Translations under genes and position numbers: made by a program
NCBI GenBank assembly: GCA_020444265.1
Contig: JAHLLH010000011.1
Location: forward strand, 26,290-90,289
Reading direction: 5' to 3'
Length of the DNA stretch: 64,000 nucleotides
DNA from: a bacterium
Lineage (GTDB): Bacteria > Electryoneota > Electryoneia > Electryoneales > Electryoneaceae
Notes under the pieces: model-generated
Database searches by the model: none
What the model saw: the letters and a program-made list of their open reading frames with translations, nothing else
What the model was told of the DNA's origin: nothing
In this document: positions 1,898 through 26,820 of the stretch, in pieces
How the letters are laid out: every line of letters starts with the position of its first letter
How positions within the stretch are numbered: position 1 is the stretch's first letter

Positions 1898-3868
1898 CTA
1901 CTTCACGAGCACAAGCCGACGTTGATGCACTTGGCCGTAAGCTTCGAGACGCAGGAGATACACGCCACTCGCAAAGTTGCTACCGTTGATCGAGATGTGG
2001 TGAACACCGGCGGGCAAAACACCCTGGTTCAGGTTTGCCACCTGCTGGCCGAGCATGTTGTACAGCCCCGCACGTACCTCTTCATGGACCGGAATGGCGA
2101 GGGTGACACGTGTCATGCTGTTAAAGGGGTTGGGCGCGACGGCGAGGTAGATCTGGTATGGAAGGGGATCCGATTCCGCCGCATCCCCATGCAATCGAGA
2201 GAGGTATACCTTTTTCCCCTGCGCAATGTCTTCGGTTCCATCATTATCAAAGTCAAAGCAATAGGTTCCACTGTAAAAGCCAACATCCTCTGGCAAAGCT
2301 CCTGGCTCCTGGTCGAAGACCCTTTCCCCATCCCGCTCCTCATTCAGCAGCAGTTGGCTGAAGCTGCCCACCGTATAAATCAGGTCTGCATCGCCATCAC
2401 CATCCACATCGCCAAAAACGCGATTTCCTGTCCCCAACTGGAGGATGGTCGAAGCTAGGTTGTCGTTACGGTCCCAGAAGCGGCTGCCATCTTCTTCGGC
2501 CCCGCCCATATAGATCATCCAGTTGTTCTCGCGGAAAAACATGTAATCCACATAACCGTTCCCATCGAGATCATGCCCCTGGATGTTCCAGGGCGTGCTG
2601 AAGAGGTTCAGCGGGAACAGGGTTTCATCCGGGACATAGAACGGTTCATCTTCGCTGCCATCATTGCGAAAAGCTGTCATTTCGCCGGGATTTGTGATGA
2701 CCAGCAGGTCCAGCACCCCATCCCCGTTCATATCGTCGAAAATGCTCCCGGTTCGAGGAGTTGTTCCTCCTGTGCCGTACTCATCGGAGAGGATGTACCC
2801 TGCCCACCAGGTTGTCTGGAATCCGATGTCAGTCAGTTCCCCCGTGCGGTAGGTCCAGTGGTACCCAGTCGCCTCGTACCATGTGGGGCGATTGATGGTA
2901 CGAATGCTACCATCTGCGGTATGGTGAATCGCATCGGGTAGCCCGGAAATGAAGATTGTGGGATCATGCCACTGAAAGTGTGAAGGCTCAACCGCCTTCG
3001 CGTACCCGTTGACAAAGGCGAGGTCAAGTTCTTCATCACCATCCAGATCAACCGGGATCGCCTCTCCTTGCCAGGCAGGTAACGTTCTCAACTCTTGAAA
3101 ATAGGTACCCTGATTTACGAGAAGCTGATAGCTGTAATACTCGTTCTGATTGCTGTTGGTGAGGATGCAGTCTGTATCGCCATCACCATCGAGATCCGCC
3201 ACACGGATGGCCATGGCATTGACTGGCGGGTCAAATTCCATCAGCGTACGCTGGTATATCCATTCCTCAGCAGTTTCGTCCCATTCATAGTGAATCAAGC
3301 CTGTCTGGTACAGATAGAGCAAATCGACCAGATCATCGCCATCAACATTTCCCGTGCCTATCCCATAGGGAGGTTGTACTTCAATGGTTCGGGGAACAAA
3401 GTTGATGGAGGTTTGCCAGTCCGGGTTCTCGAGGGTGCCAAAATTCACCCAGATAGATGCACCACCATCTGGACTTATGAACATGAGCTGGGGACCATCA
3501 TGGTAGGGATTCCACTGGCCGAAAAAGATTTGGTAGGCCGAGATGGGAGCATTGATCCCGGCGAAGTGGTCCTGATCTTCGGTCCATCCGGTAATATTTC
3601 CGGACTCGTTCCACTGAGGGATCAGACGCAGCACCGTGCCATCCGATTCGAGCATCACCCAGGAGAGTTCATTCTGCGGACCTGGGTCATAGATCGACCA
3701 GACGGCGGTAATGATATTGTCAACAGGATACCCGGTAGGATTGAGGTAGCTGGTGTCCACCTCCCATTCCCAGGCTTGGACGAATTGTGGTATCAGAAGG
3801 ATCAATACGGCTAGCAGCATCAGGAATAAACGTCTCATCTCCCCCTCCGTATCTGATTTGAACTCCAT
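1898..3868 (-). CDS. Secreted FG-GAP/VCBS repeat protein with a T9SS C-terminal sorting domain
   Basis: Signal peptide MRRLFLMLLAVLILL. There are repeated DxDGDGxxD calcium-binding FG-GAP-like motifs (DLDGDGDTD, DMNGDGVLD, DLDGNGYVD, GDVDGDGDAD). The C-terminal tail ends SGVYLLRLEAYGQ...VLVK, typical of the Por_Secre_tail. Confidence 0.8.
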   Translation of the reverse strand: MEFKSDTEGEMRRLFLMLLAVLILLIPQFVQAWEWEVDTSYLNPTGYPVDNIITAVWSIYDPGPQNELSWVMLESDGTVLRLIPQWNESGNITGWTEDQDHFAGINAPISAYQIFFGQWNPYHDGPQLMFISPDGGASIWVNFGTLENPDWQTSINFVPRTIEVQPPYGIGTGNVDGDDLVDLLYLYQTGLIHYEWDETAEEWIYQRTLMEFDPPVNAMAIRVADLDGDGDTDCILTNSNQNEYYSYQLLVNQGTYFQELRTLPAWQGEAIPVDLDGDEELDLAFVNGYAKAVEPSHFQWHDPTIFISGLPDAIHHTADGSIRTINRPTWYEATGYHWTYRTGELTDIGFQTTWWAGYILSDEYGTGGTTPRTGSIFDDMNGDGVLDLLVITNPGEMTAFRNDGSEDEPFYVPDETLFPLNLFSTPWNIQGHDLDGNGYVDYMFFRENNWMIYMGGAEEDGSRFWDRNDNLASTILQLGTGNRVFGDVDGDGDADLIYTVGSFSQLLLNEERDGERVFDQEPGALPEDVGFYSGTYCFDFDNDGTEDIAQGKKVYLSRLHGDAAESDPLPYQIYLAVAPNPFNSMTRVTLAIPVHEEVRAGLYNMLGQQVANLNQGVLPAGVHHISINGSNFASGVYLLRLEAYGQVHQRRLVLVK

Positions 3869-4110: not shown

Positions 4111-5061
4111 ATGAGCCGTTACCCGGAAGTAGATCTCTCAAAGGTACGTACCTATTCCGCTACAAGCCGTCCATCAAAAGTGAAAACGGATGAGGTGGCC
4201 ACGCCCCCGCGAGCGGGCATGACCATGCGTGACTTCCTCGATGGCTTGCCTCGTATCCTCAAAGCGGACGACCTCAAAGCGGTCGCGAAAGCGGTGGTTG
4301 AGGCGAAAAAAGCGGGCAAGCCAGTCGTGGCGATGCTCGGCGGTCATGTGATTAAAACCGGCTGCGCCCCCATCCTCGCCGACCTCGCCAGGCAGGGCTT
4401 CATACACCACTTTGCCAGCAACGGCGCGGCAGCGATCCATGATACCGAATTGGCTCGATTTGGCCATACCTCAGAAGATGTCGCCGCCCAACTCGAGGAT
4501 GGTTCATTCGGGATGGCGGATGATACTGCCGGCATGGTCAATGCAGCAGCCCGTCATGCGCAAGCTCGAGGCGAAGGTTTCGGCGAAGCGGTCGGCGCAC
4601 TATTAGTCGAAGAGCAAGGGCCCTACCTGGACCGTGCCCTACTCGCCACTGCCTGGAACATCGGTATTCCCTACACCCTCCATGTGGCGATGGGCACCGA
4701 TATTGTCCATCAGCATCCGACCGCCGATGGCGCGGCCATCGGGGATGCCAGCCTGCGCGATTTTCGTATCTTTGCTGCGACCGTGGCCAAGCTTGGGCAC
4801 GGCGGGGTGGTGCTGAATTTTGGCAGTGCAGTGGTGATGCCGGAGGTCTTCCTGAAAGCGCTTGCCGTGGCTCGCAACCTCGGACATGAGGTGGTCGATT
4901 TCACTACCGCCAATTTTGACATGCTGCAGCATTATCGCCCCACGGTCAATGTGGTCCACCGCCCGGTGTTACCCGGCGGCAAAGGTTACTCAATCACCGG
5001 GCATCACGAGATCATGATCCCGTTGCTGGCGGCAGCAGTTCTGGAAGAGGCAGAGGGCTAA
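4111..5061 (+). CDS. Deoxyhypusine synthase-like (DHS family) protein, putative
   Basis: Pattern similarity to the DHS fold: LGGHVIKTGxxxIxxL ~ LGYTSNLISSGxxxIxxL, SNGAAAIHDTEL ~ TTAGGVEEDLIK, and IPYTLHVAMGTD ~ IPVFSPALTDGS. The call is moderate because it rests on memory-based alignment only. Confidence 0.45.
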   Translation: MSRYPEVDLSKVRTYSATSRPSKVKTDEVATPPRAGMTMRDFLDGLPRILKADDLKAVAKAVVEAKKAGKPVVAMLGGHVIKTGCAPILADLARQGFIHHFASNGAAAIHDTELARFGHTSEDVAAQLEDGSFGMADDTAGMVNAAARHAQARGEGFGEAVGALLVEEQGPYLDRALLATAWNIGIPYTLHVAMGTDIVHQHPTADGAAIGDASLRDFRIFAATVAKLGHGGVVLNFGSAVVMPEVFLKALAVARNLGHEVVDFTTANFDMLQHYRPTVNVVHRPVLPGGKGYSITGHHEIMIPLLAAAVLEEAEG

Positions 5062-5091: not shown

Positions 5092-5388
5092 GTGCAAAAA
5101 ATCATGGACCATCCAGCGAAAAAATTCGACCGGTCATGGCTGGACGAGGCAACCTACCGGACCCTCGGCCACTATGCGATGATCCTCCACCTCGACCCGG
5201 AGTCCTACAAGAAAGGGGACCGTTTCCCCGACTGGGCGAAACGGTGCGATGTCGTTGTCAGCGAAATGGATGAAGGCGGTGCGGTTGCCAAGCGCCTTGA
5301 AGATGGCGCGAGCTACTTCATCACCCCCGAACAATACACCGCGCTCTGCGCCGAACTGGCAGCTCTGAGTCCGGAGGGTGAGGGATGA
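5092..5388 (+). CDS. Small hypothetical protein (98 aa) between the DHS-like and GtrA genes. Its stop overlaps the gtrA start (ATGA).
   Basis: The ORF fits in-operon, with 4-bp overlap translational coupling to the next gene. No recognisable domain. Confidence 0.4.
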   Translation: MQKIMDHPAKKFDRSWLDEATYRTLGHYAMILHLDPESYKKGDRFPDWAKRCDVVVSEMDEGGAVAKRLEDGASYFITPEQYTALCAELAALSPEGEG

Positions 5389-5881: not shown

Positions 5882-5910
5882 CCCGGCTTGGCTCGCAAGC
5901 CTGGTTTTTG
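5882..5910 (+). terminator. Intrinsic terminator after the GtrA gene
   Basis: CCCGGCTTGG-CTCG-CAAGCCTGG hairpin followed by TTTTT. Confidence 0.55.
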
Positions 5911-6056
5911 TAACCAGTTCATCAGATCGTACCCTATCGCGCCCTCGGCGCGATGGTGTTCCTCCGAGACTGCTGCAGATATGCACCTCAGGTGACCTGG
6001 GGCTTGCCCCGGGTATCCTATCCGTCTGATTGACCATCAATCGTGGCCACCCTACG

Positions 6057-6099
6057 GTGCTGACATGCAAGCTTGGGTGGCGGGGCACCCAAGCCACGG
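6057..6099. repeat. Copy A of a conserved ~45-bp hairpin element (GTGCTGAYATGYAARC-TTGGGTG-GCGGGG-CACCCAAG-CCACGG); copy B is at 61026-61070
   Basis: There are two near-identical copies in the window. The stem arms differ by compensatory changes (CTTGGGTG/CACCCAAG versus CGTGGGTG/CACCCACG). Confidence 0.5.
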
Positions 6100-6106
6100 T
6101 TACCCC

Positions 6107-6493
6107 CTACTCCCCGCCCGGCACATCCGTCTTTGTGCCACGCACCCATGCCAGATAATCCGGCAGGCCATGTTCGACTTCGAGGGCGATGAATTCCGGA
6201 AGGTCATAGGGATGCAACTCGAGGACTCGTTTCTCCAGGCCTACCAGGTTGCGTGAAGCCGTCTTGATGATCAGCAGTTCCTCGCTGTCACGGCAGAGCT
6301 TGCCCTCCCACATATAAGTCGAGGAGGTCAACGGTACCCGATTAACACAGGCCGCCAGCCCTTCCTGCACCAGGGCATCCGCTAAAACACGACCCACTGC
6401 CTGCTCCCCATCATCCGCGACAGGAACCGTCACCAACACTACATGTACACCCGACGGCATCTTGCTTCCCGGCTGCATCCCCTCCTCCTTCAT
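6107..6493 (-). CDS. cutA: Divalent-cation tolerance protein CutA. The likely true start is the internal Met near 6460.
   Basis: The CutA1 fold signature is present: VHVVLVTVP...EELLIIKT...LHPYDLPEFIALEVEHGLPDYLAWV. Confidence 0.8.
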   Translation of the reverse strand: MKEEGMQPGSKMPSGVHVVLVTVPVADDGEQAVGRVLADALVQEGLAACVNRVPLTSSTYMWEGKLCRDSEELLIIKTASRNLVGLEKRVLELHPYDLPEFIALEVEHGLPDYLAWVRGTKTDVPGGE

Positions 6494-6573
6494 CGATGAT
6501 ACTCGTCCCGGTAAAGTAAAACACCGGAAGACGAATCGCCTTCCGGTGTAGGGAAATCAAAATATCAGCGGGG

Positions 6574-7353
6574 TCAACGGCCCATCTTTTTCTTGTTCAT
6601 CGGGATCGGCTTCCATCCGTCCGCCGTCATTACCATGAGGTGCGTGTCCACCATGCCTACCGTACTAAAGGCGTGCTCTTCCTGGCGGCGCTTTGACTGC
6701 GGCATCGACATCGAAACGAGCGGAGTGACCGGCTTACGCTTCTGGGTCTGCTCCTGAAGCGAAACCTTCGGGGCTTCGCCACGGTGGCGCGGGATGTGCA
6801 GTACTGGACGGCGTTCCTTGCGGATGGTGCTGTACTTCTGTTGCACCTGTTGACGGGTCAAACCAAAATGCTCCGCCATCGCATCGGGACCGAGATCCTC
6901 ATAATGTTGCAACAGAAAGTTCTCGTCCTCTTCGGTCCAGCGACGTGGACCGACCTGAAGCTGTTCTGCCTCGCTGACACCCTTATCCGGCACCAACTCC
7001 GCAGCCTTGTGCTTGATCTTGCCGTACTTGACACGGACCGCTTTTTTGGTCACGGAGAAGTGACGGGCCAGCTCATCCAGGCTCATCGTGTTGTAGTTGG
7101 CCAACAGGTACCGTTCATCATCCTCGCTCCACTTGCGTGGACCACGGGGCTGGCTTCCCGGCGCAGGGGTCGGCGGCTCTTCCGGTGCCTTCTTCGCAAG
7201 GGTGTGGAAATCGGGACGGTCCCTCAGCTTTCCGTACTTGACACGGACTGCTTTTTTACTGACCGCGAACTGTTTCGCCAGTTCTTCGATCGGAACCTTG
7301 TTGTAGTTGGCGACGAGATAGGCTTCGTCTTCCGGTGTCCATTTCTTGGGCAT
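6574..7353 (-). CDS. Protein with three tandem Myb/SANT-like HTH repeats; putative DNA-binding protein
   Basis: There are three ~40-aa repeats: KKWTPEDEAYLVANYNKVPIEELAKQFAVSKKAVRVKYGKL, RKWSEDDERYLLANYNTMSLDELARHFSVTKKAVRVKYGKI and RRWTEEDENFLLQHYEDLGPDAMAEHFGLTRQQVQQKYSTI. These match the Myb pattern K-x-W-T-x-E-E-D-x-x-L...A...R-x-x-(W/Y). Confidence 0.6.
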   Translation of the reverse strand: MPKKWTPEDEAYLVANYNKVPIEELAKQFAVSKKAVRVKYGKLRDRPDFHTLAKKAPEEPPTPAPGSQPRGPRKWSEDDERYLLANYNTMSLDELARHFSVTKKAVRVKYGKIKHKAAELVPDKGVSEAEQLQVGPRRWTEEDENFLLQHYEDLGPDAMAEHFGLTRQQVQQKYSTIRKERRPVLHIPRHRGEAPKVSLQEQTQKRKPVTPLVSMSMPQSKRRQEEHAFSTVGMVDTHLMVMTADGWKPIPMNKKKMGR

Positions 7354-7570
7354 GCTTCAGCTCTCCAAATCGGGTTGTTCACGAGCGGCTAAGATAGGCT
7401 CCCGGAGGATTTACAAGGAGTATTTCTGGGCTCGGGGAGCCTCCTCCTGGAGCAAAGACCGGCTGGCGAAGATACAGATTCCAAGCTCTCTGTACGACCA
7501 CTCGAACCTTTGTGAGCGCTCGGTTCGAGCTGTTCTCGCTCCACCCACTTGACTCCAGCCAGCAAACCTC

Positions 7571-7628
7571 GTACGTTGAGTACGTGGAAACGAAAAGCCT
7601 TTATTCGTTTTTTCGTGTTTTCGTTTCC
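7571..7628. promoter_or_regulatory. Candidate operator(s) upstream of the TetR gene: palindrome CGTAC-GTTGA-GTACG (7571-7585), and a perfect 11-bp inverted repeat GGAAACGAAAA...TTTTCGTTTCC (7586-7596 / 7618-7628)
   Basis: Perfect inverted repeats lie 50-110 bp upstream of the tetR start. TetR regulators typically autoregulate through palindromic operators. Confidence 0.3.
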
Positions 7629-7678
7629 AGTGAAAGCGATATCCGACAGGACTTCAGCAGGGAGAGGGAAGAGGTATC

Positions 7679-8332
7679 ATGGCGGTAACCAAGCCAAAAG
7701 ACGTGGGCATGACAGATGAGGAACTGGCACGACGTGAGGAAAAACGTCAGCAGTTCTACGAGGCGGCTGAACCTCTTTTTGAACGGTTCGGGTTTAAAAA
7801 GACCACCGTCGAAGAAATCTGCCGAGACGCCGGTGCATCAAAACGGACCTTCTACGAATTGTTCAACGACAAAGGCGACCTCGCGCAGAACCTGATGTTG
7901 CATGTCGGTTTTGACATGTTCCGTCAGTTTAACGCGAAGGTGAAGGTCGGGATGTCTTCCCTCGACAAGCTGGACCTGATCATCGTCGAGTATGTAAACA
8001 TGGGACGGAGCCACAAGATCTTTCACATCCTGATGAAAGACCCCGACTTATTCGCATCCATGGGTGAACATGCGAACGAGTTGCAGTTTCGTCACATGAT
8101 CGAAGCGATGAAGCAGGTGCTGGATGAAGGAATTGAGCGTGGTGATTTTCGTACTCTGGATTCCGATGCCGCCACCTGGATGATATTTTCACTATTGGAC
8201 AGCATGTACTACCTCATCCCCGAATTTCAGATGGGGGTGGGCGCGTTCGAGGATCAACACCTCGCACGTGAGATCCGGGACTTTCTGATGCATGCCATCG
8301 TTCACCCGGACAAAGTGCGCGAATTGTCGTGA
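7679..8332 (+). CDS. TetR/AcrR-family transcriptional regulator
   Basis: N-terminal TetR HTH: TTVEEICRDAGASKRTFYELFNDKGDL. Confidence 0.85.
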   Translation: MAVTKPKDVGMTDEELARREEKRQQFYEAAEPLFERFGFKKTTVEEICRDAGASKRTFYELFNDKGDLAQNLMLHVGFDMFRQFNAKVKVGMSSLDKLDLIIVEYVNMGRSHKIFHILMKDPDLFASMGEHANELQFRHMIEAMKQVLDEGIERGDFRTLDSDAATWMIFSLLDSMYYLIPEFQMGVGAFEDQHLAREIRDFLMHAIVHPDKVRELS

Positions 8333-13970: not shown

Positions 13971-15184
13971 TGATGAGACGGTTACGACTGCTACTAAGCG
14001 TCGCCCTGCTGGTGACAACCCTTCCGGCAGTCGCGGCCAGCCTGGATGATCTCGATTTCCGTGGCTATGTCCGCGAGACGGCTCTTTTCTGGAAGTTGCC
14101 GGCCTACTTGAGTACATCTGGTGCCGAAGAACAGCAGTTTACCAACCTGCTGCATACGCGTCAGAACCTGCGCTGGTATGCCAACATGGAGTTGACCTTT
14201 GGCTTTGAGCTGAAAACACGTCTCTTCAGCGGTGATGCTGTCCAGGCGATGCTCGCACAGACCGAACAGCTCGGTGGCAACCAGAGTTTGTTCAACTGGG
14301 AACGCCGATTTGTTGACGAGAACAACCAGCTGCTGGTCAGCGGCATTGACCGCGCATGGGCGGATTATTTTCTCGGCGATTGGCAGGTGACGGTGGGTCG
14401 TCAACGGATCGCGTGGGGCTCCACGATGGTCTGGAACCCAACCGACATCTTCAATCCCTCCTCCCCCATCGACTTTGACAACGAGGAGAAACCGGGTAGC
14501 GATGGGATCCGTGTCCAGCGCTATCTCGGCACCAACTCGAAGCTTGAACTGGCTTACGCATCCACCGATCTCGAGGATTCGGACGCTTCCACGGTCGCGG
14601 GACGTGTGCTTATCAATGCCTTCGATTTCGACTGGAACGTGCTGTTGGGCATGAAGGAAGGCAATACGATGTTTGGCGGAGGGTTTGAGGGCGATATCCT
14701 CGGAGGTGGCTTCCGTGGTGAAGTCTTGTACCGTGTCCACCAGCAGGAGGAAGAAGCACCGGACGGTGCCCCTCCCAGCCCCCGGGACCTGCCCAGCTAT
14801 ATCCGCTTCGCCATCGACGGGGATTACACCTTCACCAACTCGCTCTATCTGCACGCAGGGGTGCGCTACAACGAACTCGGGGCAACGAAGGATGCAGGAT
14901 CGTTGACCAACCAGTTCAAATCCTTCGAGAACCAGTGGCTCTCCCCAGCTCGTTGGTCGCTCTTCGGCCAGGTGGGTGGCAATGCAACCCCGTTGATGCG
15001 CCTTGATCTGATGGCCATCGTCAACCCGCAGGATGGCTCGTTTTACATCGGCCCTTCCGGCAGTTACTCGCTGATCACCAACCTCGACCTGATCCTGACC
15101 GGGTTGGTTTTTCAAGGCGAGGACGGCACCGAATTCGGTGCCCAGGGGACCATCCTGATGGGTCGGCTGAAGTACTCGTTCTGA
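13970..15184 (+). CDS. Putative outer-membrane beta-barrel protein (last gene of the ABC operon)
   Basis: It has a signal peptide LLLSVALLVTTLPAVAAS and alternating amphipathic beta-strand composition. The C-terminus ...GRLKYSF ends in an aromatic Phe, typical of OMPs. Confidence 0.45.
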   Translation: MMRRLRLLLSVALLVTTLPAVAASLDDLDFRGYVRETALFWKLPAYLSTSGAEEQQFTNLLHTRQNLRWYANMELTFGFELKTRLFSGDAVQAMLAQTEQLGGNQSLFNWERRFVDENNQLLVSGIDRAWADYFLGDWQVTVGRQRIAWGSTMVWNPTDIFNPSSPIDFDNEEKPGSDGIRVQRYLGTNSKLELAYASTDLEDSDASTVAGRVLINAFDFDWNVLLGMKEGNTMFGGGFEGDILGGGFRGEVLYRVHQQEEEAPDGAPPSPRDLPSYIRFAIDGDYTFTNSLYLHAGVRYNELGATKDAGSLTNQFKSFENQWLSPARWSLFGQVGGNATPLMRLDLMAIVNPQDGSFYIGPSGSYSLITNLDLILTGLVFQGEDGTEFGAQGTILMGRLKYSF

Positions 15185-15210
15185 TTGGATTTCGATCTGG
15201 AACTGAGTGG

Positions 15211-15238
15211 CCCGACTTGCTCGCAAGTCGGGTTTATT
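15211..15238 (+). terminator. Intrinsic terminator after the outer-membrane protein gene
   Basis: CCCGACTTGC-TCG-CAAGTCGGG perfect stem followed by TTTATT. Confidence 0.6.
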
Positions 15239-15345
15239 CATAGAGATAAATGCGTGAGGTCTTCGGACCTGACGCAACCAGTATGTATCCAATGTAGAGG
15301 ATGGGCAACGCCCATCGACCGTATCGCGTTCAGACGCGAAACAGC

Positions 15346-15460
15346 GTAGGCCGGATTCTTGAATCCGGCAAAGAAGAAGGGGCCTCAGGGCCCCTGACAC
15401 CTTGTCGAATGGAACGTCATGGCACGCCATGACAACGCCGGATTCAAGAATCCGGCCTAC
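15346..15460. repeat. MITE-like palindromic element, copy R1 (~115 bp): terminal 20-bp palindromes GCCGGATTCTTGAATCCGGC / GCCGGATTCAAGAATCCGGC flanking an internal GGGGCC-N-GGCCCC hairpin
   Basis: The second copy (16985-17092) is in the same orientation. Together the two copies bracket the EEP-family gene. Confidence 0.55.
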
Positions 15461-15616
15461 ATCTTCGTGCCCTGAGGCGCGGGAAGGAAAGAGAGAAAGG
15501 ATAAACCCGGGCCGCAGGCCCGGGCCAGGCTTTACAACTAGGCTCAGCATTCTCGCAAAATGAAGAAACCCGGGCAACAAGATTGCCCGGGCCAGAATCA
15601 TCCAATCATCGGTCAT

Positions 15617-17099: not shown

Positions 17100-19181
17100 C
17101 TACTTCATCAACACCATCTTGCGGACCTTGCTGACGTCGCCGGAGGTCAGCTTGTAGAAGTAGACTCCGCTGGGCAGATCATCCGCGAGGAAGGTGATGG
17201 TATGGTTGCCCGCGCTCATGCCACGTTCAACCAGTGTCGCCACTTCTCGTCCCAACAGATCATAAACCGCCAGCTTCACCTGCCCGGCCTGACGCAGGTT
17301 GAAAGCAATCTGCGTACTCGGGTTGAAGGGGTTCGGGTAATTCTGTCCGAGCTCGAACTGATCCGGCTGCAGTGTGTTGGAGTGGCCGACGCTGTTGTCG
17401 CCGAAGAAGCCATTCCACTGCCAATCATCCGGATCCACCCAGTAGCCGGTGGAATCCCGCATCATCGGATAGTTCACCTGCCACTGCTGCCGTTCCTCGA
17501 AGATGTCGATCATCATCTGTTTTGAGAGACGGTGATAGACCATCGGGTTCTCGAGGATTTCGCCAACCGGGGCTGAACTGGAGACACCAACACCCGGGTC
17601 CCGGTCGACCATGTAGAGCAGGTGCAGATAATCACCATGACTGGTCGGTGCGATCGAGGGGCTGATCTCGCTGCGGCTGTCGCCGGGAGGCGCACCGCCA
17701 CCTTCAGTCCAGATCGTATTGGTGATGTTCACACCCTTCGCCCAACGAAGACCATTAAACTCGCCGGGGGGCGATGCAGAAACGTAGATGTCGCCATTCG
17801 CCTTGATTCCGCCTTGCCCGTAATCGGCTGTATCCGGTGCGGAGCTGATCTTACGGTAGGTACACCAAAGGATGCCCGTTTCGGGATCGTGGTAGAGGCT
17901 TGGGCGGTCGACCAGGCTGCCCCAGGCTTCCGATTGACCAACATCAAACTCGCTGTTCTCGTCAATCTGGGAGTAGACAGGATTACCACTTTCGTCCTGC
18001 ATCCAGTGGTAGAGACGGGCAGCATAGTACCGTGTATCCTCGAGGCCATCATAGATCGCCGACGTAAACGCGACATGAAGCTGATCATCACTGTCGTAAA
18101 TCACACTCCCATCGGTGTAGGGACGAAGTGTATCACCCAGGGCGGCGAGGGTGTCCGGGTAAAGATCCGGGTCCGGGCCGATGTGCGAGGTCACTTCAAT
18201 CGGGTTTTCCTGGTCCCAGGTCGCGCCCGCGTTGGTAGACTCGAAGACCCAGAAGTCATTGTTCCACTGAGTCCCCTCTCCGTCGCCGACCACTTCACCA
18301 ATTGTCGATTCACGCGCCATCACCAACCCGATCGCCACACGCTGTCCATCCGACGATGTAGTGATATCGCCCGAAATATTCATGTCTCCATCGGTGATCA
18401 GCACCTGCAAATCGTTGGGCGTCGCCTCGGCAAATTCCGGCACATTTGGATCGTACAGCCAACGCATGTAGGTGATTTCCATCGGATCGGCGTTATCGTC
18501 ACGCTGGTCATGCGAGATGATGTGCGCGTGCTGGGTCGCCGGGCTGAAGGTCGAATGGGGCCAGATGTGTGCACGTGTCCCATACTCTGGCGCAGCGTAC
18601 ATGTCATAGAAACCGGTCACAAACTCGCTTTCCAACGCAATCACACTCGCCGTCTCAGCACCCGCCGTCGCATCGTAATGGAAGGTGGGATAGGTGACAC
18701 CAGCAGCGTAATCAAAGGCGATCGTCGTATATCCGCTGCGATTGCCGGTATCGACATCACCTGTGGTTTCGTGGATGTACCAGCCAGCGCCATCGTCCGT
18801 CAGACGGACAAACTGAACGTGACGGCTGTTGCTGGTCACGCTGCCATAGAGCTTCGTAAAGATGATGTGCACTTCGGCTGGATTCTCGGCGGCATCACCG
18901 GGGAAGAAGCCAATCATACGGCTCACCTGCCCGTTGTGCTGCTGGTCCCAGTAGGAGGTGCCGACAATCATCGTGTCGCCGATGATCTCGTTCAGTTCGT
19001 TATGCGACCGGAATGATCCAGTCCAGGGGGCGAGGTCAGGGTTGATCACCACATCGTGCGAACCATCCTCCGATGCGGTAGGGGTGCGTTCGTACTCCAC
19101 CGGCGAGCCGAACGCTACCAGACCGATCAATAAAACCCATACCAATGACAATACCAGTCGTTGCATGTTCCCTCCGTACAT
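17100..19181 (-). CDS. BNR/Asp-box repeat secreted protein with T9SS C-terminal sorting domain, paralog 1 of 5
   Basis: Signal peptide. The conserved N-terminal motif is DTMIVGTSYWDQQHNGQVSRMIGF. Asp-box motifs are present (STNAGATWDQEN). The conserved C-terminal tail is FNPSTQIAF...YDLLGREVATLV...SGVYFYKLTSGDVSKVRKMVLMK. Confidence 0.8.
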   Translation of the reverse strand: MYGGNMQRLVLSLVWVLLIGLVAFGSPVEYERTPTASEDGSHDVVINPDLAPWTGSFRSHNELNEIIGDTMIVGTSYWDQQHNGQVSRMIGFFPGDAAENPAEVHIIFTKLYGSVTSNSRHVQFVRLTDDGAGWYIHETTGDVDTGNRSGYTTIAFDYAAGVTYPTFHYDATAGAETASVIALESEFVTGFYDMYAAPEYGTRAHIWPHSTFSPATQHAHIISHDQRDDNADPMEITYMRWLYDPNVPEFAEATPNDLQVLITDGDMNISGDITTSSDGQRVAIGLVMARESTIGEVVGDGEGTQWNNDFWVFESTNAGATWDQENPIEVTSHIGPDPDLYPDTLAALGDTLRPYTDGSVIYDSDDQLHVAFTSAIYDGLEDTRYYAARLYHWMQDESGNPVYSQIDENSEFDVGQSEAWGSLVDRPSLYHDPETGILWCTYRKISSAPDTADYGQGGIKANGDIYVSASPPGEFNGLRWAKGVNITNTIWTEGGGAPPGDSRSEISPSIAPTSHGDYLHLLYMVDRDPGVGVSSSAPVGEILENPMVYHRLSKQMMIDIFEERQQWQVNYPMMRDSTGYWVDPDDWQWNGFFGDNSVGHSNTLQPDQFELGQNYPNPFNPSTQIAFNLRQAGQVKLAVYDLLGREVATLVERGMSAGNHTITFLADDLPSGVYFYKLTSGDVSKVRKMVLMK

Positions 19182-19423
19182 GTCCTGCCCGAATCCTCGG
19201 ATTCAGGCTATCCAGCGGGGATAGCGACCCTTCTCGACCGGCTCATCGTGTGGGGGTCCATCATAAGAGAAACGGGGATGGGAGGAAGCGGACGCTTGGT
19301 TTCGTCCACTTCCCCTCATCCCCGGCTCTGGGGTCTTGCACAGGTAAAATAGGGGTCCGTTACGGCATAGAGCAACGCATGCGGCACATTCAACAAAAGT
19401 TACCCGGGTCAATAAAAAAGGGG

Positions 19424-19449
19424 CTGCCGAAGCAGCCCCATTGAATCGC
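19424..19449 (-). terminator. Intrinsic terminator downstream of BNR paralog 2
   Basis: On the minus strand, a GGGGCTGC-TTCG-GCAGCCCC hairpin followed by a U-tract. Confidence 0.6.
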
Positions 19450-19464
19450 TCAAGAAAGGCGACG

Positions 19465-21513
19465 TTACTTCATGAGGATCATCTTGCGGACCTTGGTGGA
19501 TTCACCAGAGGTCAGCTTGTAGAAGTAGACGCCACTGGGCAGGTCGTCGGCCATGAAGCTGACCTGGTGGCTGCCCGCACCCATCGCACGGTTCACGAGG
19601 GTGGCCACTTCACGACCGAGCAGGTCGTAGACCGCCAGCTTGACGTTTGCAGACTTGTTCAGGCTGAAACGAATCTGGGTGCTCGGGTTGAAGGGGTTCG
19701 GGTAGTTCTGCTCAAGCTGGAACTCGTTCGGCTTGAGGGTGCCGTCACCTTCAACACTGTTGTCACCGAAGAAGCCGTTCCAGGCCCAGTCATCCGGATC
19801 CTGGAAGAAGCCGGTGCTGTCGATGTGCATCGGGTAGTTCGGCAGCCAACCGTCGAACATGTCGATCAACTCCTGCTTGTTCGCCTTGTGATAGACGACG
19901 GGGCAGAGGGTGGCTTCGGTGTCGGTGGCACGATCCGGCCAGGTGTCGATGACGTACATGAAGTGCAGGAAGTCGCCATCGCTCTGCAGCGCAATGCTGG
20001 GATCGATTTCGGACTGCGCATCACCCGGGGCCATCGCATCGTCCGACAGCCATTTGGTGTCGGTCAGGTTGATCGGCTGGGTCCAACGCAAACCATTGTA
20101 CTCTCCGGGGGGAGAAGCCGTCAGGTAGACTTCACCACAGGCATACTCACCGGCAAAGTCGGTGGTGTCCGGGTTGTCGCCAAAGTTACTCGTGCGACGA
20201 TAAATCGCCCAGAGAATACCGGTGTCCGGGTCGCTGTAAAGGCTCGGACGGTCAGCGGTTTCACCGAAGACCTCGGGACGGCCCATGAAGCCTTCCGTAC
20301 CATCGGCCATCAGGGTGTACATGCCGCTTTCACGGTCCCAATGGAAGATGCGGCTGGTGTAGGTAATCGTACCCTGGAACTCGAAATATTCCGGGGTCGT
20401 GAAGGCCGCATGCAGGTTGTCTTCGAAGTCATACAGGACGGTTCCGTCCATGTAGCAACGGAGGGTGTCCTTGTTCGCCGCGGTGGTGTCGGGCAGCAGG
20501 TCGCCATCCGGCGGAATCCACTGGGTAACATCAAGCGGCTCGCCCCAGGTGGCGCCACCATCGGTGGACTCCCACAGCCAGAGGTCGTTGTCCCACTGAG
20601 TCGCCTCTTCACCTTCACCGATGGTGTAGAAACGCGGCATGGTTTCCGTATAGGCAACCATCGAACCGTCGCTGCTGGTGTGGATGTCGGACGAGTTGTT
20701 CATGCCGACTTCCGTCATCAGCACCTGCTGATCGTTCGGGACGGCAGCGGTCAGGACATTGTTTGCCGGGTCGTACAGCCAACGCATGTAGTACTTCTTG
20801 GTCGCATCGGCGGCACCAGCCGGGAAGTCGCTGTTGATCTGATGGATGTAGTTCTCCGGGCCGAAGGTGCTGCGCGGGAAGAGAACATCGTTGTCCGTCG
20901 AAGCCGGATCCGGCGCGGCGAACAGATCGAAGAAACCAGGCACGAAGGTGGATTCAAGCGCCACTTTCGGTGCGTACGGTGTGCCGTCGCCCGAATCGTG
21001 GTGGAAGGTCGGGAAGGCTTTGTTGGTGGCAACATCAACACCCAACGTACCAAAGCCGGAACGACCCGAACCATTGTCCACACCATCCGTACCGATCACA
21101 TTGACGACCGGAGCATCGGTGGACGCATCGGCAACCTGGATGTACATGATGTGACGCGACGCACTTGCCGCATCAAAACCACGCATATAAATCATGTGGA
21201 CCATGTCCTGTTCGGGGACATAGCCAATCATACGCCCGTTCTGGGCGTTGTGCTGAATGTCGTACCAGGTGTAGCCGACATGCAGCGTATCACCCACCGC
21301 CTCATCAAGAGGATTCGGCACGGGGTTACGATACTGAACATCCTGTGTCTTCTGAAGTGCTTCAGTGCCGGTCAACGGCATGTCGTTGGAAATCGGCGCC
21401 TTTGCATCAAATGCGGACGCGACACCAGCGACGAGGAGCACCATCAGGGAGACCATTAACGCTTTACGCATACTCCCTCCAAATAACAACGTGAGTTTGT
21501 TTTTACTTCCCAC
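19465..21513 (-). CDS. BNR/Asp-box repeat secreted protein with T9SS CTD, paralog 2
   Basis: GDTLHVGYTWYDIQHN...; STDGGATWGE; C-terminal ...VYFYKLTSGESTKVRKMILMK. Confidence 0.8.
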   Translation of the reverse strand: MGSKNKLTLLFGGSMRKALMVSLMVLLVAGVASAFDAKAPISNDMPLTGTEALQKTQDVQYRNPVPNPLDEAVGDTLHVGYTWYDIQHNAQNGRMIGYVPEQDMVHMIYMRGFDAASASRHIMYIQVADASTDAPVVNVIGTDGVDNGSGRSGFGTLGVDVATNKAFPTFHHDSGDGTPYAPKVALESTFVPGFFDLFAAPDPASTDNDVLFPRSTFGPENYIHQINSDFPAGAADATKKYYMRWLYDPANNVLTAAVPNDQQVLMTEVGMNNSSDIHTSSDGSMVAYTETMPRFYTIGEGEEATQWDNDLWLWESTDGGATWGEPLDVTQWIPPDGDLLPDTTAANKDTLRCYMDGTVLYDFEDNLHAAFTTPEYFEFQGTITYTSRIFHWDRESGMYTLMADGTEGFMGRPEVFGETADRPSLYSDPDTGILWAIYRRTSNFGDNPDTTDFAGEYACGEVYLTASPPGEYNGLRWTQPINLTDTKWLSDDAMAPGDAQSEIDPSIALQSDGDFLHFMYVIDTWPDRATDTEATLCPVVYHKANKQELIDMFDGWLPNYPMHIDSTGFFQDPDDWAWNGFFGDNSVEGDGTLKPNEFQLEQNYPNPFNPSTQIRFSLNKSANVKLAVYDLLGREVATLVNRAMGAGSHQVSFMADDLPSGVYFYKLTSGESTKVRKMILMK

Positions 21514-21956
21514 AGTTCCCTACAAAAATCGGTCAAGCTGGTTTGTTCCTCCGGCTCGTTGTTTGTTTATCTCTCCCACACACTTTTTATCAATCCACGT
21601 TTTCCCCTAATGGAAACGCGATCAAATGCCTTGTAAACAGGTGAATCGTGTAGAGTACATCGAGAACTCCGCGCATGCAATATCAGGCGGAGGCTCGGAC
21701 CATCTTTCAAGCCTTGCGGGTAGGCTCTCGGTTGTTCCCTCTCTTTAATATATCGAAAACAACCCCCCTCTTCTACCTTCAAAACACTTCTCCCCCTCCT
21801 CTCCTCATCAGATAGAGCCCCAAATATCCCCTAACTCCGGCAATAAAAGCCTACTACACATCTTCCCTGCCCGATTCTGAACCAGGGGTACCGTTGTGAT
21901 ACAATCTCAAAGAAGAGAAGATAGAAATGATCTTACTACAGGATTAACAAGACATT

Positions 21957-21982
21957 AAAAAAGGGGCCGCCGAAGCAGCCCC
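21957..21982 (-). terminator. Intrinsic terminator downstream of BNR paralog 3
   Basis: AAAAAAGGGGCCGC-CGAA-GCAGCCCC (minus-strand hairpin followed by a U-tract). Confidence 0.55.
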
Positions 21983-22048
21983 TCTATTACTGGCTACCCA
22001 CGGACAATCCATGGACTGTCCTGGGCATAACAAGCGCCACGGCGATGA

Positions 22049-24103
22049 TCACTTCATCAGGATCATCTTGCGAACCTTCGAGACATCACCGGAGGTCAGC
22101 TTGTAGAAGTAGACACCGCTGGCCAAGTCGCTCGCGAGGAAGGAGACGCTGTGGTTTCCGGCGCTCATCGAACGATTCACCAGGGTCGCCACCTCACGGC
22201 CCAACAGGTCATACACCGTCAAGGAAACCTGGCCCTGGGCATGCAGCGTAAAATTGATCTGCGTGCTCGGGTTGAAGGGGTTCGGATAGTTCTGGTTCAG
22301 CTCGAACTGATCGGGCTGAAGGGTACGTCCCTCGGGGACCGACACATCCCAGAAACCATTCCATTCCCAGCCATTCGGGTCCTCATAGTACCCGGCACTG
22401 TCGATGTGCATCGGGTAATTGACGACCCATTCAGCATTCTCCTCGAATTGGGCCATCAGTTCCACTTTCGGGACACGATGATAGACCATCTGGTTCAGGG
22501 TCGCGACACCTTCTTCCTGGCCTGCGACTGCCGAAATGCCCGCCTCATAGTCCATGGTGTAGAAGAGATGCAGGTAAGGACCATCGCTGTTGTAGGCCAT
22601 GCTCGGGTCACGTTCTGTCTGGCTTTCACCCGGTTCCAGAGCATTTTCCATCAAGCGGGTATCGGTCACATTCACGCCTTTAGTCCAACGTAACCCGTTG
22701 TCCGGAGATGCGGCAACATAGACATCGCTGTTCGCATAGCCGGCCGCAGTCGCATCCAGCGGCCCACCATTCAGCGTGTCCCCCGGTTCCCCATACTGGC
22801 ACCAGCTCGCCCAGAGGACGCCTGTTTCCTCATCCTTGTAGAGGTTGGCATGGCACACGGTCAGCTCCCACGCCGCGGGCTGGGCACCATTCCAGAAGTC
22901 ACCATCCGCAATCTGGGAATAGACCTCGTTCTCGCTGTCCCAGTGCCAGAGACGACCATTCAGCGAGGATGCACCTGCGCTGCGGAAGAAGTCGAGGCTG
23001 AGGGTGTTGAATGCCGTATGAATCGTGTTGTCACCATCGATGATAACATCGACTTCGGAGTAGGCACGCAAGGTGTCCTTGTTGGCGGCTGAGGTGTCCG
23101 GCAGCAAGTCACCATCCGGAGCGATGAAACTGGTCACATTCTGGGGATTCTCCCAGTCCCAGGTATCGCCCCCATCATCGCTGGTCCACAGGTAAATATC
23201 ATTGTTGCTCTGGGATGCGCGGGATTCTGCCCAGTCATCTGGTCCTTCGCCCTGGAGGAAACGGCTCACCGATCCGGCAACAGCGATCAGGCTGCCATCG
23301 CTGTTGGATGCCGGAATAGTGGATAGAACGGCGGAATAGGTGGTGACAAACATGCTGTTCGCCCCGCCGGGTGTAGCGTTCGTCCAAAGACTACTCACGG
23401 GATCGTACAAAGCACGATGGTAGTAGACATTCTCCGAAATCAGATCCTCATAGCCATTGCTGATGATGTGCACGTACAGGCCACCATCATAGCGGGTCAC
23501 CACATGTTGCGGCCAGATAAAATCGCCACCATCAGGACGGGGGAGATCGTACGGATCGAAAAAGCCCGGCACGAAAATCGATTCGGTCATCAGGCTGGAG
23601 AAATAGCCGCCATTCGGGTCCGGCTGGTGCATCATGACGTAGGGCGCACCCTCTGTTGGGTCGAGACTGATCACCGGGTACCCGGCACCAGACACTCCCA
23701 CCTGCGCCGGGCTGCCTTCCTGACGGGTGACATCCCCCGCTGCATCGACAAACAGCTTGTAATAGGAGACGTTCCGAGACCCGGTTTCGGTCGGATGCTG
23801 GGTCCAGGTCAGATGAATGACCTTGTTGTCCTCGTCGCTATCATGGACCGCGATCAGGCGGGTAAACCCGGCATTGTGCTGCTGATCGCGCCAGTTGCTG
23901 CTGAGGTGCAACGTGTCGCCGACCATATCGTCCAGCTCATCGCTGAAGAGAAACGGCCCCTCCAGGCCCTGCCCTGACGGCGTGCCATAGCCGGCATTGT
24001 TGTGGTTCTTTTCGGCGGACCAGGCCGGAGTCTGGCTGGCTGGCGATGGTCCAGCAACCAGAACCATCCCCAGTATCAATACAATCCCTAACACGTTCTT
24101 CAT
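22049..24103 (-). CDS. BNR/Asp-box repeat secreted protein with T9SS CTD, paralog 3
   Basis: GDTLHLSSNWRDQQHN; SDDGGDTWDWEN; SPDNGLRW; C-terminal ...VYFYKLTSGDVSKVRKMILMK. Confidence 0.8.
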   Translation of the reverse strand: MKNVLGIVLILGMVLVAGPSPASQTPAWSAEKNHNNAGYGTPSGQGLEGPFLFSDELDDMVGDTLHLSSNWRDQQHNAGFTRLIAVHDSDEDNKVIHLTWTQHPTETGSRNVSYYKLFVDAAGDVTRQEGSPAQVGVSGAGYPVISLDPTEGAPYVMMHQPDPNGGYFSSLMTESIFVPGFFDPYDLPRPDGGDFIWPQHVVTRYDGGLYVHIISNGYEDLISENVYYHRALYDPVSSLWTNATPGGANSMFVTTYSAVLSTIPASNSDGSLIAVAGSVSRFLQGEGPDDWAESRASQSNNDIYLWTSDDGGDTWDWENPQNVTSFIAPDGDLLPDTSAANKDTLRAYSEVDVIIDGDNTIHTAFNTLSLDFFRSAGASSLNGRLWHWDSENEVYSQIADGDFWNGAQPAAWELTVCHANLYKDEETGVLWASWCQYGEPGDTLNGGPLDATAAGYANSDVYVAASPDNGLRWTKGVNVTDTRLMENALEPGESQTERDPSMAYNSDGPYLHLFYTMDYEAGISAVAGQEEGVATLNQMVYHRVPKVELMAQFEENAEWVVNYPMHIDSAGYYEDPNGWEWNGFWDVSVPEGRTLQPDQFELNQNYPNPFNPSTQINFTLHAQGQVSLTVYDLLGREVATLVNRSMSAGNHSVSFLASDLASGVYFYKLTSGDVSKVRKMILMK

Positions 24104-24285
24104 TCAATCCCTCCTTGCGGGGCCTTGCGGAAGTTTCCCGTTGCCCACGGACCATCGTCCAGATGGACGGCCATCCCTGTACCCCGGGTTGAAAAGCGGG
24201 GCCTCGGTTTTCTCGGTACCTGAATAGTAAAACAATCGGGCGAAATCGGGCAACAGAATCTGCCGAAAACATGGAAAAACAGACG

Positions 24286-24311
24286 AAAAAAGGGGCTGCC
24301 GAAGCAGCCCC
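24286..24311 (-). terminator. Intrinsic terminator downstream of BNR paralog 4
   Basis: AAAAAGGGGCTGC-CGAA-GCAGCCCC. Confidence 0.6.
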
Positions 24312-24359
24312 TTTGAAAATCTGGATACCCGCGGCCAGTCCACTGGACTGTCCTGGGCA

Positions 24360-24383
24360 TAACCATCGCCATGGCGATGGTTA
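24360..24383. repeat. Perfect 24-bp palindrome TAACCATCGCCATGGCGATGGTTA overlapping the stop codon of BNR paralog 4
   Basis: Read directly from the sequence. The TAA stop is the complement of 24381-24383. Confidence 0.6.
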
Positions 24384-26522: not shown

Positions 26523-26759
26523 GGTTACCTCGTGCTTTTCCCTCTTTCCCTATCCAATGGATGTAGAGGCCTCCCTCAAGGCCACACATACTCGTAACGT
26601 TTGTACGGGATGAGGATTTCCGGCTCACTCTGCGGGGGTACGACTCATTGTTCATCATCAAAATACCCCCAAACCCCATCATTCGCAAGCGGCTCAAGCT
26701 CTCTTCCTACGGATTCCCATCAGCCACGCAATTCGTGACACGGCACGTTTCCAGAATAG

Positions 26760-26784
26760 AAAAAGGGGCCGCCGAAGCAGCCCC
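26760..26784 (-). terminator. Intrinsic terminator downstream of BNR paralog 5
   Basis: AAAAAGGGGCCGC-CGAA-GCAGCCCC. Confidence 0.55.
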
Positions 26785-26796
26785 TTACTATCCAGA

Positions 26797-26820
26797 TAAC
26801 AATCGCCATGGCGATTGTTA
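26797..26820. repeat. Perfect 24-bp palindrome TAACAATCGCCATGGCGATTGTTA overlapping the stop codon of BNR paralog 5
   Basis: Read directly from the sequence (coordinates +/-1). It differs from the paralog-4 copy only at symmetric positions (C/G to A/T). Confidence 0.55.

Follow-up and report, generated by a model that had tools for sequence, protein, structure and literature searches.

The DNA stretch analyzed here (64 kb, hereafter the window: positions 26,290 to 90,289 of contig JAHLLH010000011.1, assembly GCA_020444265.1, from a bacterium of the Electryoneota) harbored on its minus strand a gene for a protein with three helix-turn-helix (HTH) repeats, hereafter the HTH gene and the HTH protein (Table 1). 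The gene lies between cutA and a divergent cluster of TetR, LolA-like and FtsX-permease (ABC) genes (7679 onwards, +). A first-pass annotation of the sequence had placed it on the opposite strand to both neighbors, which was the case for the TetR cluster but not for cutA, encoded on the same minus strand. The HTH gene is genuine and strongly conserved in an uncultured bacterial lineage; it combines three Myb/GcrA-like modules with a conserved tail, and its product is probably an uncharacterized transcription regulator.

Table 1 Coordinates of the HTH gene, its protein segments, the upstream palindromes and the downstream neighbor in the window (aa, amino acids; nt, nucleotides; pI, isoelectric point; pLDDT, predicted local distance difference test score)
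Feature	Position	Strand	Description
HTH gene	6574..7353	-	Complete, 259 aa + stop; three HTH repeats, conserved linkers, C-terminal beta-hairpin and basic tail
Repeat 1 (aa 2-46)	7216..7350	-	Tri-helical HTH; pI 9.75; recognition helix SKKAVRVKYGKLR; helices 7-16, 22-29, 33-44; mean column conservation 0.93
Linker 1 (aa 47-71)	7141..7215	-	Pro-rich, PDF..LAKKAP..PP.P.PG.QPRG; mean column conservation 0.76; mostly low pLDDT, short helix 49-54
Repeat 2 (aa 72-116)	7006..7140	-	Tri-helical HTH; pI 9.83; helices 77-86, 92-99, 103-120; mean column conservation 0.96
Linker 2 (aa 117-135)	6949..7005	-	Acidic, AAELVPDKGVSEAEQLQVG; mean column conservation 0.92 though pLDDT <50
Repeat 3 (aa 136-181)	6811..6948	-	Most divergent repeat; pI 5.55 in this genome; mean column conservation 0.76
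Linker 3 (aa 182-232)	6658..6810	-	Basic, pI 11.4; conserved PLVSMSMP motif; mean column conservation 0.57; pLDDT 52-58
C-terminal beta-hairpin and basic tail (aa 233-259)	6577..6657	-	THLMVMTxDGWKPhxh+K+h; strands 234-243, 246-253
Palindrome CTCCGGGAG	7399..7407	.	54 nt upstream of ATG; candidate operator
Related palindrome CTCCCCGAG (CTCNNNGAG site)	7431..7439	.	86 nt upstream of ATG; inverted repeat with 7396-7407
Palindrome CTCCAGGAG	7444..7452	.	99 nt upstream of ATG; position class -93 to -113 of most orthologous loci
cutA (CutA1 family)	6107..6493	-	Pfam CutA1 1.8e-29; directly downstream, same strand
Terminator-like hairpin	6521..6549	-	13-bp stem, then TTTACTTTAC; in the 80-nt gap between stop codon and cutA; consensus scan

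Repeat organization of the HTH protein

The ATG start codon of the HTH gene is preceded by a GGAG Shine-Dalgarno-like sequence, and the protein start MPKKW was common to all orthologs. One of the 23 ortholog clusters displayed an N-terminal extension (294 aa), presumably an upstream start call. Local BLOSUM62 scores between the repeats reached 157 (repeats 1 and 2), 119 (repeats 2 and 3) and 89 (repeats 1 and 3), compared to shuffled controls with means of 20 to 21.5 (standard deviation 4 to 4.5) and maxima of 40 to 61. The residue pattern announced by the first-pass annotation (K-x-W-T-x-E-[ED]-[ED]..L...Y; hAxxF; [KR]xxV[RQ]xKY) was found in the protein, along with the basic C-terminal stretches KRKPVTPL, SKRRQEE and NKKKMGR. 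As the open reading frame (ORF), the significant repeat scores, the residue pattern and the basic stretches were all present, the observation of three tandem repeats is real.

The full-length AlphaFold2 model, built from a family alignment of 24 sequences, had a mean pLDDT of 73 and a predicted template modeling score (pTM) of 0.27, while repeat 2 modeled alone from 125 diverse repeat units reached a pLDDT of 94.4. The module arrangement is not fixed by the full-length model because the linkers were of low confidence. The repeats are predicted to adopt a three-helix bundle with helices 2 and 3 forming the HTH. The expected three helices per repeat were recovered in repeats 1 and 2, but in repeat 3, which was also helical, helices 1 and 2 were merged: DSSP joined them as one helix (aa 141 to 163) followed by helix 3 (aa 167 to 181). 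A kink between the merged helices, at Gly155-Pro156, is probable from the sequence. The solved structure closest to the repeat was the DNA-binding domain of GcrA, and the HTH protein opens with a tri-helical DNA-binding domain of the GcrA type. The next structural matches (scores in brackets) were Reb1 (7.0), Tc3 transposase (7.0), CEF1/Cdc5 (6.7, 6.5), SNAPC4 (6.4), CDC5L (6.4), the R2R3-MYB protein WER (6.3) and c-Myb R1 (6.1).

The core of the recognition helix, KKAVRVKYGK, was identical between repeats 1 and 2, and its residues K33, K34, A35, R37, V38, K39, G41 and K42 were invariant among the 24 sequences. Conservation extended to the segments between and after the modules. The conservation of linker 2 despite its low pLDDT suggests a constrained interaction surface. 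In the C-terminal hairpin, modeled with a pLDDT of about 82 for aa 241 to 250, residues G233, H238, T243, G246 and W247 were invariant.

Relation to known HTH families

Pfam models of several HTH families competed for the protein, with weak matches. HTH_11 (33.7 bits) and Sigma70_r4_2 (28.2 bits) both scored above Myb_DNA-binding (PF00249), which reached 26.4 bits for a cut-off of 24.4; Myb_DNA-bind_6 (PF13921) reached 23.7 bits for a cut-off of 22.9. Both Myb models matched repeat 3 only (aa 137-176 and 139-180, respectively) and gave no match on repeats 1 and 2, and membership of Pfam Myb_DNA-binding is marginal. The best stretch of HTH_11 (PF08279) covered only profile positions 11 to 33 of 55 (aa 15-37) and no beta wing was predicted after any repeat; a BirA-type winged HTH was rejected on these grounds. 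The label "biotin operon repressor" given by JGI probably stems from this partial HTH_11 match. The other source names were "hypothetical protein" and "HTH domain-containing protein", in line with the earlier view of an uncharacterized family. Region 4 of the sigma-70 family (PF08281/PF04545; TIGR02937) was discarded for want of the accompanying region 2 (and 3). The GcrA model PF07750 gave no match on the protein even at E <= 10 in the Pfam scan, NCBIfam gave nothing over its cut-offs, and a whole-protein sequence search of PDB chains gave no match at E <= 10. The HTH protein is not a member of the GcrA, sigma-70 or BirA-type HTH_11 families.

When a profile of the 125 repeat units was searched against PDB sequences, the best natural matches were B-Myb, v-Myb and c-Myb (E 7e-8 to 3.5e-6; B-Myb 7e-8), E-values that were helped by the two repeats per chain. 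Per domain, the highest scores were those of the second HTH of Cbp2 (26.7 bits over the full length, positions 5 to 45), the HTH of LrpA (25.2 bits, confined to the HTH) and the DNA-binding domain of GcrA (24.8 bits over nearly the full length, positions 4 to 44), compared to 18.9 bits for Myb R3. Scanned singly, the 125 units matched HTH_11 (31 units), Sigma70_r4_2 (27), Myb_DNA-binding (18, at E <= 0.01), AsnC-type (18), Myb_DNA-bind_6 (15) and GcrA (8); since single-unit matches were scattered over these families, the module sits between existing models. The description of the repeats as Myb/SANT/homeodomain-like three-helix HTH modules was borne out by the Pfam Myb matches on repeat 3 and by the matches of the repeat profile to Myb proteins; "Myb/SANT-like" is a fair label for the repeats at the fold level only.

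The repeats share with Myb/SANT proteins (c-Myb/B-Myb, CDC5/CEF1, SNAPC4, Reb1; PF00249/PF13921) the tri-helical fold, the tandem modules, a helix 1 opening with W-[ST]-x-E-E-D and an aromatic residue in helix 3 (Tyr in the HTH protein, Trp in Myb). Of the three Myb tryptophans only the first is kept (W5, W75 and W139). The partial replacement by Tyr and Ile proposed in the first-pass annotation held for the third, whose equivalents are Y40, Y110 and Y174 in an alignment extended by hand past profile position 37 (AVRVKY vs. Myb AVKNHW), but not for the second, which has no direct equivalent, Ile or Leu being only nearby. In the profile alignment, the loop between helices 1 and 2 (H1-H2 loop) of Myb proteins has a two-residue insertion, in which the second Trp lies, and their HTH turn has one residue more. 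The repeats have an H1-H2 loop shorter by about 2 to 3 residues and a turn shorter by one residue, of the classical bacterial type, and the aromatic residues are spaced more closely than the 18 to 19 residues of Myb. The c-Myb R1R2R3 arrangement claimed initially did not hold either: Myb repeats are contiguous units of about 50 to 53 residues, whereas the repeats of the HTH protein start 70 and 64 aa apart and are separated by linkers of 25 and 19 aa, mostly non-helical and of low pLDDT. The HTH protein is not a true counterpart of animal c-Myb.

GcrA of Caulobacter crescentus (PDB 5YIU/5YIV; PF07750) resembles the HTH protein in its tri-helical HTH and in its layout, where an N-terminal HTH is followed by a linker and a small C-terminal module, and its own sequence presumably shares the W-[ST]-x-E ... 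L ... IA..LG..[ST]..AV signature of the repeats. Its DNA-binding domain is a compact bundle of three helices resembling sigma-4, with the major groove read by helices 2 and 3; its C-terminal domain, a CCCH zinc finger, binds region 2 of sigma70 (PMC5887438). GcrA is presented as a sigma70 cofactor at most active promoters (PMC4647560, PMC5887438) and as a protein of Alphaproteobacteria (PMC3667746). The HTH protein differs from it by three DNA-binding domains instead of one, by a predicted beta-hairpin and no cysteine instead of the terminal zinc finger, and by its occurrence in candidate phyla of the FCB (Fibrobacteres-Chlorobi-Bacteroidetes) group, whereas GcrA occurs in Alphaproteobacteria and some phages.

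Linked HTH modules in prokaryotes are also displayed by Cbp1 (three HTHs) and Cbp2 (two; PDB 2LVS), which like the HTH protein carry imperfect HTH repeats on linkers and were called structurally close to paired-domain (Pax) and Myb proteins by their authors (PMC3597662). When the full-length model was searched against PDB by Foldseek, no match reached E <= 1e-3; the proteins recovered were generic linked-HTH proteins, of which Cbp2 (2lvs) was the best match (E 0.037, probability 0.93). Cbp1 and Cbp2 differ in being crenarchaeal, in binding CRISPR repeats and in having no C-terminal hairpin. In its probable working, the HTH protein likely resembles such linked-HTH DNA readers (Cbp1/Cbp2, Myb R2R3, paired domains).

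Tandem arrays of modules of about 45 aa were likewise found in phage multi-HTH proteins. PHROG matches were phrog_323 ("transcriptional regulator, D5-like"; 8.3e-29, spanning aa 68-187), phrog_11013 (3.6e-17) and phrog_14101 (1.4e-13), and the best structural (Foldseek) matches in BFVD (including A0A172Q0C1 and A0A6J5MJ02) were also multi-HTH phage proteins (E 6e-5 to 1e-3). Unlike the HTH protein, these proteins are viral, mostly uncharacterized and in many cases joined to helicase, HNH or other domains, and the C-terminal hairpin was absent from those phage-context or multi-repeat relatives whose sequences were read. Similarity at the BLAST level was also absent, tblastn against 50,697 phage records giving nothing at E <= 1e-3.

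Distribution and origin

A word-index search recovered only 23 related clusters, of 258 to 261 aa (one of 294 aa) and 65 to 97% identity over the full length, and an exhaustive search recovered one full-length representative at 50% identity. The full-length gene was present in 15 species-level genomes, including Candidatus Electryonea clarkiae (Candidatus Electryoneota, FCB group); one metagenome-assembled genome (MAG) carrying it was labeled Calditrichaeota. The full-length family was found only in MAGs related to Candidatus Electryoneota. Across the 15 loci, identity to the window copy was 65 to 80% for the HTH protein, compared to 42 to 55% for CutA, 43 to 59% for GtrA and 23 to 42% for TetR. 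Only the 316-aa neighbor was conserved to a comparable degree (73 to 79% identity).

The repeat unit itself was much more widespread, with 764 cluster representatives (50% identity) at E <= 1e-3 and up to nine matched stretches per protein, and the claim that such an arrangement is rare in bacteria was overstated. By the stricter repeat profile, proteins carried one to eight copies, sometimes fused to helicase domains, and many of the carriers appear viral. Two multi-repeat relatives (P0029 and P0033) were encoded on contigs that look phage- or virus-like, with numerous small ORFs all in one direction; the P0029 contig also encoded HNH, MazG-like and ribonucleotide reductase genes, while the P0033 contig gave one AAA/MCM-like match only. 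The rest of the window and the retrieved loci contained no paralog of the repeat.

A separate set of relatives was a family of single-HTH proteins from Calditrichota and KSB1, both related FCB-group lineages, and from unclassified MAGs, mostly of 127 to 139 aa (93 new clusters listed, two of them longer). They start with MAKKWT..., carry one N-terminal, repeat 1-like HTH (two HTHs in few members) and a variable charged linker, and end in the same C-terminal hairpin, with the motif h.h.T.[DE]GW.P...KKR; this motif also ended one- and two-HTH relatives of 89 to 215 aa from KSB1 and Calditrichota. Their HTHs scored 99 to 137 against repeat 1, 83 to 104 against repeat 2 and 79 to 108 against repeat 3. 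Besides having one or two HTHs instead of three, they differed from the HTH gene by other neighbors and by the absence of CTCNNNGAG upstream. This family of about 130 aa comprises probable orthologs or ancestors of the HTH gene. From sequence comparison, the simplest reading is that the HTH protein would be the Electryoneota version of that family, two modules having been inserted between the ancestral HTH and the tail, and most likely it arose by internal duplication. It looks like a lineage-restricted three-module expansion of an equally uncharacterized HTH-plus-hairpin family.

Two other two-HTH relatives (P0064 and P0079) had no hairpin tail and ended in Y.VGD.I.H..... G.V......G....V.F..G..K.L instead. 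By eye only, this C-terminal segment resembles a small Tudor/SH3-like beta domain, as found in some RNA-polymerase-binding proteins; Pfam gave no match on the segment, only N-terminal HTH-type matches.

A palindrome upstream of the HTH gene

The palindrome CTCYNGGAG occurred in the window at 7399-7407 and 7444-7452 only. Sites of the form CTCNNNGAG were under-represented in the window (9 sites vs. 21 +/- 4.5 expected from dinucleotide shuffles), and three of the nine fell in a 54-bp stretch upstream of the HTH gene; their scarcity may mean that a site of a regulatory or restriction type is avoided. The 15 orthologous loci, 140.7 kb in all, contained 18 CTCYNGGAG sites, of which 15, spread over 13 loci, were at most 260 bp upstream of the ortholog; the palindrome stood about 55 to 155 nt, mostly about 93 to 113 nt, upstream of the start codon. 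This placement was independent of the upstream gene, being the same with a divergent TetR gene or a co-directional gene. The looser pattern CTC-N3-4-GAG was present in all 16 upstream regions (shuffle mean 1.65, maximum 6), and the flanks often lengthened the symmetry of the palindrome, as in locus L002 (GGTCTCTAGGAGACC). In global alignment the upstream regions were otherwise poorly conserved, the palindrome excepted.

A reading of the palindrome as RNA structure was rejected: the 9-mer cannot fold alone, it mostly occurred in single copy, and no shared structure was found among the minimum free energy folds of the 160-nt leaders. A protein-binding DNA site is the most economical reading because the 9-mer cannot fold alone and the leaders have no common RNA structure. 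The arms are also reminiscent of those of CIRCE, a likeness that was dismissed as the spacing (3 vs. 9 nt) and the flanks differ. CTCYNGGAG is a candidate (auto)operator, and we infer that the HTH protein itself may bind it.

Neighboring genes and other features of the window

The cutA gene adjoined the HTH gene downstream in 13 of the 15 related loci. Because it touches or overlaps the stop codon of the HTH gene in four orthologous loci, while the window displays a terminator-like hairpin between the two genes, co-transcription with cutA probably differs between genomes. About half of the loci had the divergent TetR gene. A perfect 12-nt inverted repeat (7585-7596 / 7618-7629; TGGAAACGAAAA / TTTTCGTTTCCA, 21 nt between arms) was found 50 to 95 nt upstream of the TetR start (7679) and is a likely TetR operator for the TetR/LolA-like/FtsX-permease cluster; a similar AACGAAAA/CGTTT-rich sequence was present in loci L001 and L002. 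A sigma-70 promoter scan from 5900 to 7800 gave none, and the lineage may use another promoter type. Rfam at gathering thresholds gave no RNA family in the window, hence no known leader or riboswitch, and no CRISPR-like or tandem repeat array was found there by Tandem Repeats Finder.

The 316-aa protein (4111-5061, +) displayed only a weak ArgZ-like Rossmann match. Its gene is followed by a 98-aa ORF without Pfam match (5092-5388, +) and by a gene for a GtrA-like membrane protein, and this block was syntenic in 6 of the 15 loci. Farther away, five tandem genes of 682 to 713 aa (17100-28905, -) look like a paralogous array of secreted proteins; the three that were scanned each matched only a C-terminal sorting domain of the type IX secretion system (T9SS; Por_Secre_tail). 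An FG-GAP/Por_Secre_tail protein was encoded at 1898-3868 (-), and two large ORFs had no Pfam match at E <= 1e-5 (41971-43545, -, 524 aa; 13994-15616, -, 540 aa).

The single-HTH relatives had other surroundings: several were preceded by a C25 peptidase gene and followed by genes for a CMD-like protein, DnaK and ClpB, and elsewhere there were efflux or ABC genes. At four loci of Calditrichota-like genomes (L017, L019, L021 and L024), the relative of about 130 aa shared its strand with a T9SS-type C25 peptidase gene on one side and the genes for the CMD-like protein, DnaK and ClpB on the other. A tie of these relatives to heat-shock genes is possible; it was not conserved at L023 and L025.

Proposed role and alternatives

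We consider, with moderate confidence, the HTH protein to be a chromosomal, lineage-specific DNA-binding regulator, whose repeats 1 and 2 would read the same short half-site and whose C-terminal hairpin and tail would serve self-association or contact with a partner. Each of these two repeats would insert its basic recognition helix into the DNA major groove, and the flexible linkers would let the modules sit on neighboring sites. Such a protein would act as a transcription regulator, and its own promoter would be one probable target, through CTCYNGGAG.

Several points weigh against this proposal. No homolog of known function ties the family to DNA binding. The linkers are unusually conserved (linker 2 above all), which agrees with a role in partner binding no less well than with one as a simple tether. 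The low pTM of the full-length model makes its inter-domain geometry unreliable, and the acidic repeat 3 of this genome indicates that not every module need bind DNA. The gene neighborhood varies between lineages and gives no hint of a regulon or pathway. Why a monomer of three modules should favor a palindrome of 9 bp is not obvious, and the binder of the palindrome may be another factor, or the palindrome could be a promoter element.

The HTH protein could instead be a cofactor of RNA polymerase or sigma, or a nucleoid-associated architectural protein, whose HTHs give affinity for DNA while linkers and hairpin dock on a partner such as RNA polymerase, as in GcrA. We regard this as possible but unlikely: the closest solved structure of the repeat comes from a sigma70 cofactor, conservation is very high, well above that of neighboring genes and with the non-globular linkers included, no functional neighborhood is conserved across lineages, and P0064 and P0079 end in the Tudor/SH3-like segment noted by eye; however, PF07750 did not match, the protein has no cysteine and hence no CCCH sigma-interacting domain of the GcrA kind, and the gene-specific palindrome argues for some site-specific regulation. 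According to a bolder reading, which seems to us rather improbable, the whole HTH-plus-hairpin family would serve the Calditrichota-KSB1-Electryoneota branch of the FCB group as a global transcription factor or RNA-polymerase cofactor that is part of the core and may be essential. It would be a functional analog of GcrA with a different partner module; in Electryoneota its DNA-binding head would have been triplicated and its expression brought under control of the lineage-wide CTCYNGGAG. That the repeats would be SANT-like modules for protein interaction or RNA binding, in a protein not acting on DNA, agrees with the acidic repeat 3, but is quite unlikely given the strongly basic third helices of repeats 1 and 2, their bacterial HTH signature hAxxFGV[ST]KKAV, and the top structure and profile matches (GcrA, Reb1, Tc3, Myb R2R3, Cbp2), all sequence-specific DNA binders.

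Two further readings concern the origin of the gene. The PHROG and BFVD matches to phage proteins, and the contigs of P0029 and P0033 with their many small co-directional ORFs, point to a gene derived from phage, be it a prophage gene or a domesticated phage regulator, and not to one of the cellular core. Such an origin appears improbable all the same, since the same chromosomal neighborhood (cutA, often GtrA and the 316-aa gene) surrounds the gene in 13 of 15 genomes with phage genes absent nearby, the tblastn search of phage records was empty, and the acquisition would have to be older than the radiation of the lineage. Horizontal transfer of a true homolog of eukaryotic c-Myb R1R2R3 is the faintest prospect. 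The Pfam Myb models over their cut-offs on repeat 3 and the Myb proteins as best natural PDB sequence matches of the profile are its evidence, but the linkers of 19 to 25 residues replace contiguous units of about 52 aa, Myb has a longer H1-H2 loop and HTH turn and a second Trp that the repeats lack, Cbp2 and GcrA outscore the Myb repeat per domain, and the nearest relatives are bacterial and phage proteins.

Established views stand, and the fold and the principle are familiar. Pfam splits a widespread module among Myb, GcrA, sigma-4 and HTH_11 models; with a model of its own, hundreds of proteins from phages and bacteria would be better annotated. If the HTH protein is the lineage-specific DNA-binding regulator proposed here, it would be a compact example of a multi-module DNA reader built by duplicating a GcrA/Myb-like HTH within one polypeptide, a strategy for which phages, the archaeal Cbp1 and the Myb, Pax and homeodomain proteins of eukaryotes are the better-known cases. 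Together with the CTCYNGGAG palindrome, it would offer an entry into the transcription control of candidate phyla without cultured members.

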